From Myxococcota bacterium (GTDB lineage Bacteria > Myxococcota_A > Polyangia > Polyangiales > Sandaracinaceae): a stretch of 36,390 bases of DNA. The stretch is taken from assembly GCA_036149055.1 (NCBI GenBank), contig JAYZQJ010000208.1:1-36390 (forward strand), written 5' to 3'. Of the stretch, positions 2,382-22,172 are shown in pieces. Within the stretch, counting starts at the first letter, position 1, and the number at the start of each line of letters is the position of its first letter. The notes beneath the pieces were generated by a model that made no database searches, was not told the DNA's origin, and saw only the letters and a list, made by a program, of their open reading frames with translations. Made by a program: the position numbers and the translations under genes.

Positions 2382-4205
2382 ATGCGCCCGGCGCTCCTGC
2401 TCCTCCTCCTGCTCGGCTGCGACGGCTCGCTCGACGCGCCGGACGCGAGCCCGGAGGCGGACGTGGGCCCGACCGAGCCGGGGTGCGCGGACCTCGAGAC
2501 CCGGGTGGTCTGCGAGGAGGGCTGCCGGCGCGAGGCCTGCCGCGGCGACGAGGTCTGCGAGGCGGCCGCCTGCGTGCCGTGGACGGAGGCGACGCTCTTC
2601 GCGGACTTCACGCTCGACGTCTCCGGGCTGCGAGCGAGCGTCGAGGTGCTCCCGGGGGGCTTCCCGCGGCGGCACCTCGAGGCGCTCCGCTTCGACTTCG
2701 GGGACGGGACGGCGGGGTGGGGCGAGCGGCTCCGTCACGCGTACGCGGCCCCGGGCGTCTATCCGGTCGAGCTCGAGGTGCGCCTGACCGACGGCCGCGT
2801 CCTGTCGGCGCGCAAGCTGGCCGCGCTCGGATCGCTCGACGAGCATCGCCCGCTGCGCCTGACGGTGAACGCGATCCCCGAGGCGCTGAACGGGAGCGCG
2901 CCGTACCCACGCGAGGTCGGCGCGCCGGTGCCCTTCCACCTGCGGGTGCCGCGGTCGGGCTTCACGGTGGACGTGACCCTGCTGCCCGCGCCCGGCGACG
3001 CGATCGATCCATCGGCGGTCACGCTCCGGAGCGAGCCGCCGTTCGGCGCGCCGACGCTCGCCTTCGACGCGGACGGCGTGCGCGGCGTCTGGGAGGTGGA
3101 CGCGGACGCGCCGGAGGGCCTGGTGACCTTCGTCGCCGAGGTGACCAGCGAGGGCGGCGCCCGGCACGAGGCCCGGCTCACCGTCGAGGCGGTCGCCTTC
3201 GGCCCGGAGCTCGACCCCTTCGACGCCCCGCTGACCTGGCTCTTCCGGCTCGACACCGACTTCTTCACCACCCGGCGGGCGGCAGGCGGAGGCCTCGAGA
3301 GCGCGCCGACGCCGAACGGCGAGCCCGACCTCCTCGAGGAGCTGCGCCTCCTCGGCGCGCAGGGCGGGGACGCGGCGCTCGACGCGGCCTTCCTGCGCTG
3401 GATCCTCGACGCCATCCGCGGGCAGACCCTGCGGGTCTACGAGGGCGAGATCCCCCTCGACGTGGTCTGGCAGGGCGACCCGGGCGCGCCGGACCCGGCC
3501 GCGTTCCGACCCGACGGCGCGTTCTCGATGATGCGCTTCGGCGGCGTCTTCGACGGCTTCGTGGGCTTCAGCGGCATCTCGCCGCACCACGCCGAGCGCA
3601 TGGACGACTCCACCGCCGACCGCGGCGTGGCCACCGCGAGCTTGTTCTCCATCTTGCTCACCACGCCGGTGGTCTCCTCCGCGCTCGCGCCGATCGATCC
3701 CGCGCGCGGTCAGCCGATCGGCGCGCACCCCGCCGACGCCGCGGTGCTCGACCCGGGCTTCGATCCCTGGGGCGACGTCGAGCCCGACGCGCTCGCCCGC
3801 TACGAGACGCTGCGCACGCTGGCCCGCTACCTCGCGCTCGTCGTCTCCTCGGTGACCGCGCACGAGATGGGCCACGCGATGGGCTTGATGCCGAACGGCG
3901 CGCCGCCGGCGGGCTTCTTCGGCGACACCCCCGAGCCGCTCTTCGTCGGCGACGAGCGCACCGACCCGTGGCACGCGGACCTGCCGGGCCTGAACCTCAT
4001 GCAGGCGGGCGGCGACTACCTCGGAGTGGTCGACGACGCCCTGGCCTCTCTCGAGCTCCCGCCGGGCGCGGACCTGCTGCGCATCGCCGAGATCCTCGCG
4101 CTCGAGAACCGCCCCTCCGCCTACGCCCGCGCCTACCTCGAGGGCCGCCTCACCTACGTGGACGGCGGCGCCGGGCGAGGCGGCGCCGTCGGCTGCCGTC
4201 GGTGA
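2382..4205 (+). CDS. Lipoprotein with PKD domain and C-terminal zinc metallopeptidase motif
   Basis: MRPALLLLLLLGC lipobox; FDFGDG..HAYAAPGVYPVELEV (PKD); TAHEMGHAMGL (HExxH). Confidence 0.8.
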   Translation: MRPALLLLLLLGCDGSLDAPDASPEADVGPTEPGCADLETRVVCEEGCRREACRGDEVCEAAACVPWTEATLFADFTLDVSGLRASVEVLPGGFPRRHLEALRFDFGDGTAGWGERLRHAYAAPGVYPVELEVRLTDGRVLSARKLAALGSLDEHRPLRLTVNAIPEALNGSAPYPREVGAPVPFHLRVPRSGFTVDVTLLPAPGDAIDPSAVTLRSEPPFGAPTLAFDADGVRGVWEVDADAPEGLVTFVAEVTSEGGARHEARLTVEAVAFGPELDPFDAPLTWLFRLDTDFFTTRRAAGGGLESAPTPNGEPDLLEELRLLGAQGGDAALDAAFLRWILDAIRGQTLRVYEGEIPLDVVWQGDPGAPDPAAFRPDGAFSMMRFGGVFDGFVGFSGISPHHAERMDDSTADRGVATASLFSILLTTPVVSSALAPIDPARGQPIGAHPADAAVLDPGFDPWGDVEPDALARYETLRTLARYLALVVSSVTAHEMGHAMGLMPNGAPPAGFFGDTPEPLFVGDERTDPWHADLPGLNLMQAGGDYLGVVDDALASLELPPGADLLRIAEILALENRPSAYARAYLEGRLTYVDGGAGRGGAVGCRR

Positions 4206-4220
4206 GGTAGGCTCGTCCCC

Positions 4221-4691
4221 ATGGCCCTCCCCGTCCGCTCGGCCGATCACCTCACGCGGTGCCTCTCGTGCCGCGTGCACATTCGCGCCGCAGCCCGCCC
4301 CAGCCTCACCGACTGTCCTTTCTGCGGCGCCAACCTTCACCGCGATCGTGGGCGATGGGTGAACACCGGGCGCAGCGGGCTGCTCGCCGGGGCGCTGCTC
4401 GCGTTCACGGCGTGCAGTGAGGAGCCGCCGCCGGAGCCGAGCCCGGCGCCTCCCTCCGCGCAGCTCGGGCAGACCGCGCCCTCCGACCCGGCGCTCTCCG
4501 ACCCCGCGTCCGAGATCGAGGCGACCCACGAGCCGACGGACCAGTTCGAGGCGGAGCCAGCGGATCGCCCGCCGTCGGCTCCGCGCTACGGGCTCGCCCC
4601 GAGTCCGCGCCCCCAGCGGTCGATCGTCAACCCGTTCGAGCCCGAGCCGAGTGCAGCCAGCGAGCCCTCGGTCCTCGATCCGTTCGAGTAG
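4221..4691 (+). CDS. Zinc-ribbon/lipobox YG-motif protein 1 (putative rSAM substrate)
   Basis: CLSC..CPFC, GRSGLLAGALLAFTAC, acidic/Pro-rich tail with PRYGLAP; paralogous to the next two genes. Confidence 0.8.
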   Translation: MALPVRSADHLTRCLSCRVHIRAAARPSLTDCPFCGANLHRDRGRWVNTGRSGLLAGALLAFTACSEEPPPEPSPAPPSAQLGQTAPSDPALSDPASEIEATHEPTDQFEAEPADRPPSAPRYGLAPSPRPQRSIVNPFEPEPSAASEPSVLDPFE

Positions 4692-4750
4692 ACCCGACGC
4701 GACAGTCGCACGTCGAACGGGGTATCTTCAGCCGAACCGGAGGTCTCGCC

Positions 4751-5185
4751 TTGAAGCCGATCAAGTCCCGCCATGGTCTGACCCGCTGCACCGCGTGCCG
4801 CTCGCACATCCGCGCCGCCGAGCGCCCGAGCGGGACGAGCTGCCCCTTCTGCGGGGCCAACCTCGTGACCGGGAGGCGGAGGATCACGGCCCCGACCGGG
4901 CGGAGCGGCCTGGTCGCCGGCGCCCTCCTCGCGTTCTCGGTGACCGCCTGCGGCGGCTCGAGCCCCGAGGCCGACGAGCCCACTCAGCAGGTCGCGGACG
5001 ACGACGCGCCGGTCACCAGCGAGGATCCGCCGCCGGCCGACGACCAGTACGCCGACGATCCCGCCGACGACAACGCCGCGGTGGCCGAGTACGGCATGGC
5101 GATGCCGGAGGACGAGTACGAGGACGAGCCGTCCGACAGCCCGCGCCCGTCGCCGCGCTACGGCCTCGCGCCGGGACCGCGCTGA
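4751..5185 (+). CDS. Zinc-ribbon/lipobox YG-motif protein 2 (putative rSAM substrate)
   Basis: GGAGG RBS before TTG; CTAC..CPFC, GRSGLVAGALLAFSVTAC, EYGMAM and PRYGLAP. Confidence 0.8.
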   Translation: MKPIKSRHGLTRCTACRSHIRAAERPSGTSCPFCGANLVTGRRRITAPTGRSGLVAGALLAFSVTACGGSSPEADEPTQQVADDDAPVTSEDPPPADDQYADDPADDNAAVAEYGMAMPEDEYEDEPSDSPRPSPRYGLAPGPR

Positions 5186-5571
5186 TGGCGACGCGCTCCC
5201 GGCCCGGGCTCACCGTCTGCCCGCGCTGCCGCGCGCACGTCCAGGCCGGGGAGAGGCCGTCGACCACCGTCTGCCCGTTCTGCGAGGCGCCCCGCGTCGG
5301 CGCCGTCGGGCGGAGCGGCGTGCTCGCGGGGGCCCTGCTCGCCTTCGCCTGCGCGGGCCCGGACGCCCCCAGCGCCGAGCCGGAGCCGAGGCCGGACGAG
5401 CCGGTGGACGTCTTCGAGCCGTCCGACGAGAACATCGAGGTCGAGGCCTACGGGGCCGCGCCCCTGCCGGAGGACGAGCTCCCGCCCGAGCCGGACACCG
5501 AAGACGACGACGGCTGGCGCCCGCCGCCCGATGATCCGCCGGACGAGCCCATGTACGGCATCGCGCCGTGA
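5185..5571 (+). CDS. Zinc-ribbon/lipobox YG-motif protein 3 (putative rSAM substrate)
   Basis: ATG overlaps previous stop (TGATG); C-terminal part of track ORF 4417..5571; CPRC..CPFC, GRSGVLAGALLAFAC, AYGAAP and terminal MYGIAP. Confidence 0.8.
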   Translation: MATRSRPGLTVCPRCRAHVQAGERPSTTVCPFCEAPRVGAVGRSGVLAGALLAFACAGPDAPSAEPEPRPDEPVDVFEPSDENIEVEAYGAAPLPEDELPPEPDTEDDDGWRPPPDDPPDEPMYGIAP

Positions 5572-6926
5572 GCGAGGCGGACGTGAGCCAGGCGCGCCCG
5601 AGGCCGCCGGTCGGCGCCACCCCCGAGGAGCGACCGCGGGATCTGATCCGCGGCGCGGCCACCGGTGACGAGGCGGCGATCAGCTACGTGGTCTGGGAGA
5701 TCACGCTCGCCTGCGATCTCGGCTGCCGGCACTGCGGCTCGCGCGCGGGCAAGGCGCGCTCGGACGAGCTGAGCACCGAGGAGTGCCTCGACGTCGTGCG
5801 CCAGCTCCAGGACCTCGGCGTGCGGGAGGTGACCCTCATCGGCGGCGAGGCCTACCTCCGGGAGGACTGGGACGTCATCGCCCGCGCGATCGTCGACGCG
5901 GGGATGCGCTGCGGGATCACCACCGGCGGCCGCAACCTGGACGCGGAGCGCGTGGCCCGGGCGGAGGCGGCGGGCATCTCGACCATCAGCGTCTCGATCG
6001 ACGGCCTGGAGCGCACCCACGATCTCCAGCGCGGGGCGCGGGGCTCCTTCCGCGCGGCGGTGGAGGCGGCGGAGCGGGTCTCGGCCAGCTCGATGCGGCT
6101 CGCGACCAACACCCAGATCAACCGGCTCTCCATGCCCGAGCTCGTGGCGATGGCCGATCTCCTGATCGCGCTCGGCTCCGAGGCCTGGCAGCTCCAGATC
6201 ACGGTGCCGATGGGCCGCGCCGCGGATCGGCCGGAGCTCCTGCTGCAGCCTCACGATCTGCTCGAGCTCTTCCCGCTGCTCGTCTGGATCAAGCAGAACA
6301 AGCTGCAGCCCAACGGGATCCGCGCCTTCCCCGGCAACAACATCGGCTACTTCTCGCACTTCGAGGAGCTGCTCCGCTACGGCGGCGCGGGCGGCACGCA
6401 CTGGGCGGGCTGCGGCGCGGGGACGAGCTGCCTCGGGGTCGAGGCCGACGGCAAGGTGAAGGGCTGCCCGAGCCTCCCCTCGAACGAGTGGACCGGCGGC
6501 CTGACCCGCGAGCGCTCGGTCCGCGAGATCGTCGAGCAGACCGACGAGCTGACCCACCTCGGCGCCCGCACCCGCGACGACCTCTGGGGCTTCTGCGGCA
6601 CCTGCTACTACGCCGACGTGTGCAAGGCCGGGTGCACCTGGACCTCCACCGTCCTGATGGGCCGCCCCGGGAACAACCCCTACTGCATCCACCGCGCCCT
6701 CGAGCACGAGAAGCAGGGCGTCCGGGAGCGCCTCGTCCGCGTCGAGGCCGCGCCCGGCGATCCCTTCGACCACGGCCGCTTCGAGACCCTCCTCGAGCCG
6801 CTGCCGACCGCGACCGAGGCGACCATCCTCGGGGTGCCGCTCGAGCGGGTCATGACGCTCGGCGTCGACAGCCCCGGCCTCATCGACGAGGCCGAGGGCA
6901 AGCGCCGCCTCCGCATCCTGCGCTGA
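5568..6926 (+). CDS. Radical SAM/SPASM peptide-modifying enzyme, splicease (PlpX)-like
   Basis: WEITLACDLGCRHCGSRAG (CxxxCxxC), IGGEAYL, GNNIGYF, SPASM cysteines CGAG..GCPSL..CGTCYYADVCKAGC..NNPYC; GTGA overlap with protein 3. Confidence 0.88.
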   Translation: MSEADVSQARPRPPVGATPEERPRDLIRGAATGDEAAISYVVWEITLACDLGCRHCGSRAGKARSDELSTEECLDVVRQLQDLGVREVTLIGGEAYLREDWDVIARAIVDAGMRCGITTGGRNLDAERVARAEAAGISTISVSIDGLERTHDLQRGARGSFRAAVEAAERVSASSMRLATNTQINRLSMPELVAMADLLIALGSEAWQLQITVPMGRAADRPELLLQPHDLLELFPLLVWIKQNKLQPNGIRAFPGNNIGYFSHFEELLRYGGAGGTHWAGCGAGTSCLGVEADGKVKGCPSLPSNEWTGGLTRERSVREIVEQTDELTHLGARTRDDLWGFCGTCYYADVCKAGCTWTSTVLMGRPGNNPYCIHRALEHEKQGVRERLVRVEAAPGDPFDHGRFETLLEPLPTATEATILGVPLERVMTLGVDSPGLIDEAEGKRRLRILR

Positions 6927-6954
6927 GCGGTGGGCCGAGCGGCAGGGCGATCGC

Positions 6955-8402
<1,448 letters not shown>

Positions 8403-12955: not shown

Positions 12956-13122
12956 GGCCGCGTCGTGTAGCGCTCCCGCGGGACGTCGGCCAGCCGCCCT
13001 TGCCTCCCACCGACGCCGAACCCAGGACGGGGGCGCCGCGGCGTTCGGGTGGGGAGCGCGGCAGCGGGGCCGTCGTGTAGCGCGCACCGTGGTGGTGCGC
13101 GCGTCGGCCCTTGGAGGATTTC

Positions 13123-13695
13123 ATGACCATGCTCGACAACCTGAAGCGCCTCGCGATCGCGATGGCCCTGTGCCTTCCCCTCGCCGCGTGCGGCGGCTCC
13201 GACGACTCGGGCGACATGTCCGCGGACACCGAGTCCACGGCCGGCGACGAGATGATGGAGGAGGACACCGAAGAGACGGCCTCGGCCGACATCGTCGACA
13301 CGGCGGTCGCGGCCGGACAGTTCGAGACGCTGGTGGCCGCCGTGCAGGCCGCCGGGCTCGTCGAGACGCTGAAGGGCCCCGGCCCGTACACCGTCTTCGC
13401 GCCCACCGACGAGGCGTTCGCCGCGCTCCCCGAGGGCACGGTGGAGTCGCTCCTCCAGCCGGAGAACCGCGACCAGCTCGTGGCCATCCTCACCTACCAC
13501 GTGGTCAGCGGTGACGTCCGCGCGGCCGACGTGATGAGCATGTCCGAGGCCACCACCGTGCAGGGCGCCACGCTCCCGATCGACGCCTCGAGCGGCAGCG
13601 TCCGGGTCGGCAGCGCGACGGTCGTCCAGGCCGACGTCGCGGCGTCCAACGGCGTGATCCACGTCATCGACGCCGTGCTCATGCCGCCGGAGTGA
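13123..13695 (+). CDS. Fasciclin (FAS1) domain lipoprotein
   Basis: GGAGG RBS, lipobox [32 protein letters not shown]. Confidence 0.93.
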
Positions 13696-20862: not shown

Positions 20863-21288
20863 TCAGGACGCGCGCTCGTCTCGCGCCGCCGGGGGCTCGA
20901 TCCCCGCGGCGCGTAGCTGCGCGAACGCCCACGCCTCCGCCTCCTCGTACGTCGCCACCACCGTGTGCGGCGTGTCGAGCGGAGAGACCCAGAAGATCGC
21001 GGTGAGCACGCCGCGCACGAGCCCGCTGTCGATCACGAACGCGGTGCCGAGCGAGTAGCGGCGGAGCGTCTCCGCGTGCTCCTCCAGCCAGCGCGACTGC
21101 AGCTTGCGCTGGCTCGCGGGGGTGCGCCCGGCCATCCGGCCGTCCATCACGACCACGGTCTTCTGCCGCTTCTCGAGCATCTCGCTCATGCGTGCGAGGT
21201 AGGCGGCGAACTCCTGATCGGTCGCCGCGCCTTCGAAGGACACGTGGATCAATGGTCGACGCGACTCGTCGATGCGGATGGTGCTCAT
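20863..21288 (-). CDS. STAS/SEC14-like small protein
   Basis: VVMDGR, GTAFVIDSGLVRGVLTAIFWVSP, EEAEAWA; start overlaps upstream stop. Confidence 0.7.
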   Translation of the reverse strand: MSTIRIDESRRPLIHVSFEGAATDQEFAAYLARMSEMLEKRQKTVVVMDGRMAGRTPASQRKLQSRWLEEHAETLRRYSLGTAFVIDSGLVRGVLTAIFWVSPLDTPHTVVATYEEAEAWAFAQLRAAGIEPPAARDERAS

Positions 21289-22172
21289 CAGGCGTCGAGG
21301 AAGTCTATCAGGGCCGTCACCAGGGCGGCGGTGCCGTGAACGACCGCCTCGCCGAGGGTCTCGGTCGACGCCGCGTGGGGCGTGATGACCTGCGAGGACG
21401 AGGAGGCCAGCGCCCGCTGGCGGCGCGCGGCGAGCTCCCGCTCGCGCTTCTCCTGGCCCGGCCGGTGACGCAGGCCCCCGCTGGCGACGAACTCGAGCAC
21501 GTGGGTGAGCTCGTCGGGGTCGAACCACGTGCCGTGGTGATGGCAGATGTCGACGATGACCCCGGAGCTGCGCCCGAAGTTCTTCCGGGACATCACCTTC
21601 TGGCAGATCGGGCAGGGCCGGTACTTCACCGCCTCCGCGACCCGCCCGCGCTGCGTCTTCACCGCCGACGCGGTCTCCGCCTCGCTCTCGACGTTCCGCT
21701 CGCGCACGAGGCGGGAGAGCGTCGTCTGGTCGACGAACACGCCGCCGCACGCCCCGCACTCCTCGATGCGGTGATCGCCGACGTCGATGAGGTGGAGCAC
21801 GTCTTCGTCGCAGCTCGGGCAGCGGTGCTCGGTGGGCCCCAGGTCGCCCTCGAGCCCCAGCGTCGCGCCGCACTGGCCGCACGCCTGAGTCCCGGCGAAC
21901 GAGAGGTCGAAGCAGCGCCAGCAGCGGACGCTCGCGAGCTCCACCGCGCAGTAGGTGCAGCGCCGGATGCCGGCGTCGAGGAAGCCGCCGCAGCTCGGGC
22001 ACTTCAGCGCCTTCGCCTCGCCGACCGTCCCCTTCTTCGCCGGCACGGTCGCGGAATCGAGCGGCGTCAGATCACAGAGGCAGGGAGGCAGGCTCGCCCC
22101 CGCCGCGGTGGCGCCGCCGCACTCGTCGCAGGTCTCGACCATCCCCTCCGACTCTACCAGCGGAGCCTCCAC
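21288..22172 (-). CDS. Multi zinc-ribbon protein (double zinc ribbon plus zf-TFIIB-like)
   Basis: Many CxxC pairs; IEECGACGGVFVD, CPICQKVM, IVDICHHHGTWFDPDEL; start may be ATG 22142. Confidence 0.82.
   Translation of the reverse strand: MEAPLVESEGMVETCDECGGATAAGASLPPCLCDLTPLDSATVPAKKGTVGEAKALKCPSCGGFLDAGIRRCTYCAVELASVRCWRCFDLSFAGTQACGQCGATLGLEGDLGPTEHRCPSCDEDVLHLIDVGDHRIEECGACGGVFVDQTTLSRLVRERNVESEAETASAVKTQRGRVAEAVKYRPCPICQKVMSRKNFGRSSGVIVDICHHHGTWFDPDELTHVLEFVASGGLRHRPGQEKRERELAARRQRALASSSSQVITPHAASTETLGEAVVHGTAALVTALIDFLDA

Follow-up and report, generated by a model that had tools for sequence, protein, structure and literature searches.

Putative zinc-ribbon pre-lipoproteins as probable substrates of a splicease-type radical SAM enzyme in Myxococcota

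Spliceotide systems are recognised by a radical S-adenosylmethionine (SAM)/SPASM enzyme close to PlpX and by an adjacent precursor with conserved XYG sites. According to papers that cite it, the survey of Scott et al. (2022) took in 189 genera and 939 predicted spliceotide systems, proteins being included. PlpX itself is placed in IPR026482 in a review (PMC11002830). The locus described here lies on a stretch of 36,390 nucleotides from a Myxococcota bacterium of the Sandaracinaceae (assembly GCA_036149055.1, contig JAYZQJ010000208.1), referred to as the window, and consists of three tandem genes for zinc-ribbon proteins with YG sites (substrates P1, P2 and P3) and one gene for a splicease-type radical SAM/SPASM enzyme. 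The tandem unit encodes neither a Y protein nor a peptidase-transporter. This four-gene system is best filed as a real and widespread variant of the described spliceotide class, and on balance it appears to be a two-component system whose substrates would be pre-lipoproteins.

An earlier sequence-only reading of this stretch had assigned the enzyme to the spliceases by motif similarity, and the two splicease families were indeed the top two NCBIfam models: TIGR04103 (nif11-class maturase 3, type I, which we take to be identical with IPR026482) gave 485 bits and TIGR03913 gave 437.5 bits, the next family reaching 149, with both scores under the curated cut-offs of 725 and 591.75 bits, so that the enzyme is a member of neither family. 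The TIGR03913 match stops at profile position 395 of 477. True members cross-score alike: TIGR03913 gives 414 with a Nostoc TIGR04103 member, and TIGR04103 gives 439 with an Azospirillum TIGR03913 member; the window enzyme is therefore as close to the two families as these are to each other. It keeps 102 of the 110 positions that are near-invariant both in 121 type I enzymes and in nine of the GDL-motif (GDL) type, together with all ten iron-sulfur cysteines (three radical SAM and seven SPASM). With TIGR04103 members as stand-ins for PlpX, it may be regarded by sequence as a radical SAM/SPASM enzyme close to PlpX.

A quick tree of 91 rows placed the enzyme in a 58-row clade (support 99) made up mostly of ribbon-linked enzymes, which adjoins the GDL clade (support 81, weak and not starred). 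A group supported at 97 joins it with the Nostoc enzyme, apart from five other radical SAM proteins of the genome. The proposed kinship was not refuted by these comparisons, in which the enzyme groups with members of TIGR04103 and TIGR03913. Its nearest relatives there come from records named Sandaracinaceae, Polyangiales or Myxococcota, with one labelled Proteobacteria.

The three substrates each carry CxxCxxH...CPFC followed by GRSG..AGALLAF..AC, at the very places earlier given for these motifs. Searches of P1-P3 against Pfam and NCBIfam returned no family above cut-off and no match to Nif11 or PF08898, and a protein-atlas search with P2 returned unnamed Myxococcota clusters only. Five of their seven tail tyrosines stand in YG, a number equalled or exceeded in none of 100,000 composition-keeping shuffles. 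The shared element had been read as YG(L/M/A/I)A; the YG sites hold, and the family site proved wider, [QV]-P-x-Y-G-x-P-P, where the residue before Tyr is Leu, Val, Glu, Ala, Pro, Arg or Met.

Homologues of the enzyme adjoin ribbon proteins, a point that the earlier reading had proposed to check. Among the best 80 loci of at least 563 confirmed relatives, a separate ribbon protein was found at 63, a ribbon fused to the enzyme at seven, and neither, by profile, at ten. Of these ten, L015 and L063 show on inspection a divergent substrate, L029, L049, L055 and L056 run into a contig end, L052 and L057 have a precursor of a different type, and at L038 and L068 no precursor was seen. The ribbon profile gave 91 non-enzyme matches, of which two were dropped as spurious, leaving 89 substrates, seven of them from this genome. 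Their tails hold 228 tyrosines, 206 of which precede Gly where 29 would be expected, a count biased because the profile was seeded with 79 segments picked for downstream YG. As controls, 183 of 2167 tail tyrosines stood in YG among 937 crude lipoprotein candidates of the genome, and 21 of 239 among 162 candidates of similar composition. Both P2 sites recur in the matching gene of a related locus (L040). A leader-only database search returned 43 proteins, seven of them unrelated ribbon proteins and 36 family members by eye, and 35 of these 36 carry YG; part of the matches are the same proteins as in the loci. The ribbon proteins are accordingly adjacent putative precursors with conserved XYG sites, and the lack of YG conservation that would have refuted the earlier reading was not seen. 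A strict genome scan with PxYGx[PA][PA] for ribbon-less substrates gave 11 further matches, none an evident substrate.

The ribbon is not confined to substrates. The substrate-built profile also finds 12 enzyme-fused ribbons at 16-37 bits, and among the 548 CxxC..CxxC segments of the genome solely the eight substrates exceed 9.5 bits. All nine GDL-clade (TIGR03913-type) enzymes of the tree, from Acidobacteriota, Eremiobacterota, Azospirillum and Aureibacter, carry ribbon and helix at the C-terminus (L013, L016, L017, L031, L037, L054, L086-L088), and their substrates are DUF1843-like. Two alphaproteobacterial enzymes have the ribbon at the N-terminus (L085:2725-4344, on a Tropicibacter oceani plasmid, and L050, in an Arenibaculum metagenome-assembled genome), with the GRSG-type helix kept and the lipobox Cys absent. 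Its placement on substrates in some systems and on enzymes in others suggests that the ribbon is a docking module. Fusions of a similar sort have been made by experiment: PlpY and the RhaA leader, which activate their enzymes, can be fused to the enzyme C-terminus (Richter et al., PMC11414181). The L085 and L050 enzymes are candidates for natural leader-independent spliceases. Their shared type of operon also encodes a second radical SAM protein, an M23 peptidase and a trypsin-like protein, the last with D-Y-G-A-I-L-L in both; a small YG precursor was not found nearby.

A complex model of P3 residues 1-58 with the enzyme supports leader-enzyme binding. It scored 0.63, the best of three controls reaching 0.01. 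The mark was attained by 116 of 157 solved complexes and by 2 of 215 mismatched pairs, counts that are only roughly valid with our own alignments. At least 84% of contacts were common to the runs, with a partner pLDDT of at least 70. In the model the ribbon packs on the enzyme surface, and the helix (residues 42-55) on the two enzyme segments, given as predicted in Table 1. A sequence search of the PDB found no splicease, the best match being SkfB (E 2.5e-18), which makes it less likely that the model passed by memory. The predicted surface also tracks the ribbon: His273 is kept in 69 of 75 ribbon-linked enzymes (59 of 64, eight of nine and two of two) and in none of 123 ribbon-less ones (0 of 2 and 0 of 121). 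Tyr342 is found in 71 of the 75; at this position 119 of 121 type I enzymes have Glu or Lys, and the two remaining ribbon-less enzymes have Pro or Glu. Taken with the fusions and the model, this co-variation makes docking by ribbon and helix quite likely.

The substrates had also been read as lipoproteins that stay anchored in the membrane, and the sequence statistics support the lipoprotein part of this reading. A Cys follows the hydrophobic stretch in 85 of the 89 substrates and is preceded by Gly, Ala or Ser in 82 of the 85; the residue after it is Gly, Ser, Asp, Glu or Ala in 75 of 85, compared with 770 of 937 ordinary candidates of the genome. No peptidase or exporter was seen to recur at ribbon loci, whereas the ribbon-less loci L052 and L057 have a peptidase-ABC exporter. 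On this evidence lipid anchoring is likely. Genes for Lgt and LspA, which are necessary but not specific, are present in the genome; the lipoprotein-processing set is expanded, with a tandem pair of LspA genes and, spread over six places, seven Lgt-family matches, on C206 (28682-30855) and five other contigs. Export by the Tat route was considered and rejected, a loose and mostly unconvincing twin-arginine pattern occurring in only nine of 85 leaders.

Among 301 sampled genomes of the phylum the enzyme was found in 90 and a leader match in 54, all 54 being among the 90; related genomes in this count are not independent. A cultured bacterium, Lujinxingia vulgaris, is among the carriers (locus L041). 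The genome under study (9.9 Mb, 73% G+C) carries eight substrates: three in the window, two downstream of a second splicease (C227:60463-62521; 57% identical, in a different clade), and single ones on C4 near 17670 (-), C128 near 142940 (-) and C199 near 16600 (-). In a Planctomycetota metagenome-assembled genome (L072) three ribbon substrates lie downstream of the enzyme; two of them lack the signal helix and lipobox Cys, and one of these two has a C-terminal hydrophobic segment. Two loci from Proteobacteria records (L052, L057) combine related enzymes with PF14407-like leader precursors and a peptidase-ABC exporter (its C39 domain checked for L052), with no ribbon, and these enzymes differ at His273, Tyr342 and Tyr343.

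A mechanism may be proposed on this basis. Its starting point is the tandem arrangement of the three substrate genes and the enzyme gene. In the cytoplasm, the ribbon and the adjoining hydrophobic helix would dock on the enzyme, taking the role of PlpY or of the RhaA leader helix. The enzyme, by homology, very probably excises tyramine (C8H9NO, 135 Da) at P-x-Y-G, which would leave alpha-keto-beta-amino acids derived from Arg, Ala, Met and perhaps Glu. The released helix would then act as a lipoprotein signal, Lgt and LspA lipidating and cutting the protein at the invariant Cys, and a floppy acidic tail bearing keto-amides would stay anchored to the envelope. Such an enzyme needs iron-sulfur clusters and SAM, and this one has no export signal; editing must therefore precede export, an order that binding of the signal helix by the enzyme would impose.

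The most likely use of the product, and the weakest step of the scheme, would be a tethered panel of serine and cysteine protease inhibitors with differing residues at the inhibitor position P1 (as distinct from the substrate so named). We place it slightly short of even confidence. In the spliced product the keto-bearing P1 would derive from the residue before Tyr, and the conserved Pro would be P2. Serine-protease inhibitors commonly have Pro at P2, and the cyclotheonamides have Pro-keto-arginine as their warhead. The role of the conserved Pro may, however, lie in recognition by the enzyme, which is what makes this step the weakest. In the excerpts available, cyclotheonamides are described as ketoamide protease inhibitors (PMC9811515), and spliced Rheinheimera peptides inhibited proteases where unspliced ones did not (PMC11626197). 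The same source, as far as its accessible text goes, reports the DYG site of RcsA from Rheinheimera as unmodified, which renders modification of the EYG site of substrate P2 doubtful.

A bolder version of the proposal is that many Myxococcota produce envelope proteins that are lipid-anchored and that carry several keto-amide warheads through editing of their backbone, an architecture undescribed in print. One leader would do three jobs (docking, activation with hiding of the signal helix, and export through signal peptidase II), and paralogues with different P1 residues (Arg, Glu, Ala, Met, Leu, Val or Pro) would make up a panel of inhibitors on the cell surface, directed at different protease classes. 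The ribbon would then be a mobile docking part, the signal helix would be shielded from the export machinery until editing is done, and housekeeping signal peptidase II would take over from the usual leader peptidase and exporter. In so full a form the idea is tentative and rather unlikely to hold.

Several observations weigh against a spliceotide system with lipoprotein substrates, besides the enzyme scores under both cut-offs and the seeding bias of the YG count. The enzyme is only 47-50% identical to the 121 type I enzymes. The tree was a quick search with long outgroup branches from which PlpX, PcpX, RhaX and other characterised enzymes were left out, and its 97-supported group absorbed the intended outgroup, L089. 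Tyr343 tracks the ribbon less cleanly, being present also in 45 of the 121 type I enzymes, and the residue co-variation as a whole draws on two ribbon-less lineages only. The flanks examined were of 4 kb and often ended by contig ends; no leader match was obtained in 36 of the 90 genomes with the enzyme (19 candidates scored per genome), and one complete lipobox protein (L081) has no YG. The lipobox [LVI][ASTVI][GAS]C is strict in only 27 of 85 substrates and relaxed in 56; in the window P2 (VTA-C) has the strict form, P1 (FTA-C) the relaxed form only, and P3 (AFA-C) neither, but still Ala-Cys. The Cys lies at residue 44-94 (median 64; 56-67 in the window), compared with 18 in ordinary candidates. 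Four of the 89 substrates lack such a Cys, among them one L039 paralogue that has the helix, and in L072 two substrates have no hydrophobic stretch and yet carry YG sites.

The alternative that survives best accepts both splicing and lipoprotein export, with the anchored protein as a mere carrier from which envelope proteases would release short keto-amide peptides. It would account for the position of the last YG, which in 55 of 87 substrates is no more than 11 residues from the C-terminus, for two or more repeated sites in 64 of 89 and for the unconserved tails between them, and the final natural products of spliceotide pathways are said to remain elusive (PMC9811515, accessible part). Against it, no protease recurs near the ribbon loci, and the site consensus contains no obvious cleavage motif. 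Five substrates (L075, L077, L078, L082, L049) moreover have an AgmX/PglI-like (TonB-C-like) domain, at 22-37 bits under a cut-off of 40, hinting at a link to envelope or gliding complexes and fitting a protein that is retained in the envelope. A mere carrier seems unlikely.

Distinctly less probable is that the hydrophobic helix serves only as an enzyme activator or as an uncleaved membrane anchor, the Cys being unlipidated and the protein cytoplasmic or membrane-spanning. In its favour, enzyme contacts are predicted for residues 42-55, the region before the Cys is threefold longer than usual and the L039 paralogue has helix without Cys; but the Cys and its small preceding residue are kept in 82 of 85 substrates though the helix sequence varies, the Cys lies outside the confident model contacts, and it is lost in the enzyme fusions. 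Another radical chemistry at the YG sites (a cross-link or plain backbone cleavage), or a keto group acting as a covalent tether to envelope amines in place of protease inhibition, would find room in the scores under both family cut-offs, in the eight of 110 shared near-invariant positions at which the enzyme differs and in a sequence search that found no solved splicease structure defining catalytic residues, but is hardly probable given that a Nostoc type I precursor has A-L-Y-G-L-P-P, the same pattern as the consensus here, and that reviews tell of 27 confirmed pairs among PlpX-like enzymes that have YG-rich neighbours.

The layout of the locus is given in Table 1. The four-gene order is not an assembly artefact, as 3600-7300 lies within a single contig of an independent public assembly that comes from another study. 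Of the two gene overlaps noted from the sequence, TGATG between P2 and P3 stands; GTGA between P3 and the enzyme depends on the start chosen, being present with the start at 5568 and lost with an equally plausible GTG at 5583, which has GAGG 5 nt upstream and gives the 447 aa of the database protein. DNA repeats at the locus merely mirror the paralogy of P1-P3. A contig of one public DNA run skips 4199-4688, at a depth of 32 against 51 for the form with the stretch, so that part of the population seems to lack P1. The public runs that best hold the locus are mostly marine. Contigs from an RNA library cover 4633-5860 and 5862-6930; they were not used as evidence of expression because neighbouring genes are covered as well and the contigs show neither strand nor level. 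A promoter and terminator scan gave no promoter-like site and one terminator-like site, at chance level.

Table 1. Features of the substrate and enzyme genes, with positions in the window
Feature	Position	Strand	Remarks
Substrate P1	4221-4691	+	156 aa; zinc ribbon 4260-4325; hydrophobic helix; lipobox Cys65 at 4413
P1 YG site	4587	+	one site, A-P-R-Y-G
Substrate P2	4751-5185	+	144 aa; TTG start, GGAGG 7 nt upstream; zinc ribbon 4787-4852; Cys67 at 4949
P2 YG sites	5090, 5159	+	A-E-Y-G and S-P-R-Y-G; both kept in matching gene of locus L040
Substrate P3	5185-5571	+	128 aa; zinc ribbon 5218-5283; Cys56 at 5350
P3 YG sites	5449, 5554	+	E-A-Y-G and P-M-Y-G; P3 ends E-P-M-Y-G
Splicease-type radical SAM/SPASM enzyme	5568-6926	+	452 aa from 5568, 447 aa from 5583
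Enzyme CxxxCxxC	5712-5735	+	radical SAM cysteines
Enzyme SPASM cysteines, seven	6411-6686	+	
Enzyme helix, residues 224-239 (from 5583)	6252-6299	+	predicted holder of substrate hydrophobic helix; model only
Enzyme C-terminal residues 410-424	6810-6854	+	predicted holder of hydrophobic helix together with 224-239; model only
Enzyme ribbon-binding surface, predicted	6351-6620	+	residues 257-275 and 342-346; model and residue tracking
Enzyme His273	6399	+	
Enzyme Tyr342/Tyr343	6606-6611	+	

The gene after the enzyme encodes a convergent sigma-54 regulator. Upstream, ending 15 nt before P1, lies a gene for a probable lipoprotein with a PKD domain and a zinc-protease-like motif, HEMGHAMGL (2382-4205, +). 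It was considered as a pathway protease and is not counted as part of the system, because neither a match at any of the compared loci nor a genomic paralogue was found. Elsewhere in the window are a lipoprotein-like protein with a fibrinogen C-terminal domain (179-1045, -), a fasciclin protein (13111-13695, +) and a multi-zinc-ribbon protein unrelated to the substrate ribbon (21288-22172, -).

If the proposal is true, radical backbone editing of ribosomal peptides would be joined to ordinary lipoprotein export, two pathways usually apart, and what is made would be a protein that contains beta-amino acids and is tethered to the membrane. This would explain the absence of free product in culture extracts and show where a native spliceotide should be sought. 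Any function would be widespread, the enzyme type being present in close to a third of the sampled genomes of the phylum. For tagging proteins independently of a leader, the natural ribbon-enzyme fusions would be candidate tools comparable to the engineered RhaX-leader fusion.

In the available portions of the spliceotide literature (PMC11414181, PMC11626197, PMC10533398, PMC9811515, PMC10849128, PMC11002830, PMC10373908, PMC12710340, PMC10885120) no zinc-ribbon or lipoprotein precursors are described; the survey of Scott et al. (2022), which reportedly includes myxobacterial types, may well list them. The accessible supplement of PMC11414181 aligns Y proteins with the leaders of types II, III and V and gives no type IV alignment, which leaves room for a type with a leader unlike Y. 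With bacterial lipoproteins at large, processed by Lgt and LspA, the substrates have in common a basic residue, an uncharged hydrophobic stretch, Gly/Ala-Cys and a small or acidic residue at +2; they differ in a pre-Cys region of 44-94 residues with a metal-binding ribbon, and in a mature part that is mostly unstructured linker with target sites. The type I systems PlpX/PlpY/PlpA and PcpXYA of Pleurocapsa share the ten cysteines and several sites per substrate, as far as the available texts go (PMC11414181, PMC11002830), and a type I PcpA peptide, Q-P-M-Y-G, resembles the E-P-M-Y-G end of P3 (PMC11414181, accessible supplement). Type I has a Nif11 leader and a Y gene, whereas the present system is without both and has a zinc ribbon and a lipoprotein-type signal; a C-terminal ribbon was found in none of 120 type I proteins. 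The binary type II systems of Rheinheimera, RhaX/RhaA, RcsX/RcsA and RasX/RasA, likewise consist of two components, and their leader helix is predicted to activate the enzyme by binding to it (PMC11414181, PMC11626197). The docking element in the present system is instead a zinc ribbon with a signal-like helix, and the likeness is drawn from the published descriptions. The GDL-motif/DUF1843 systems (TIGR03913, PF08898) form the adjoining clade in the tree and use the same ribbon family, fused there to the enzyme C-terminus; the substrates there, small helical DUF1843 proteins, have their YG at the N-terminus and lack a lipobox, whereas here the ribbon sits on the substrate.

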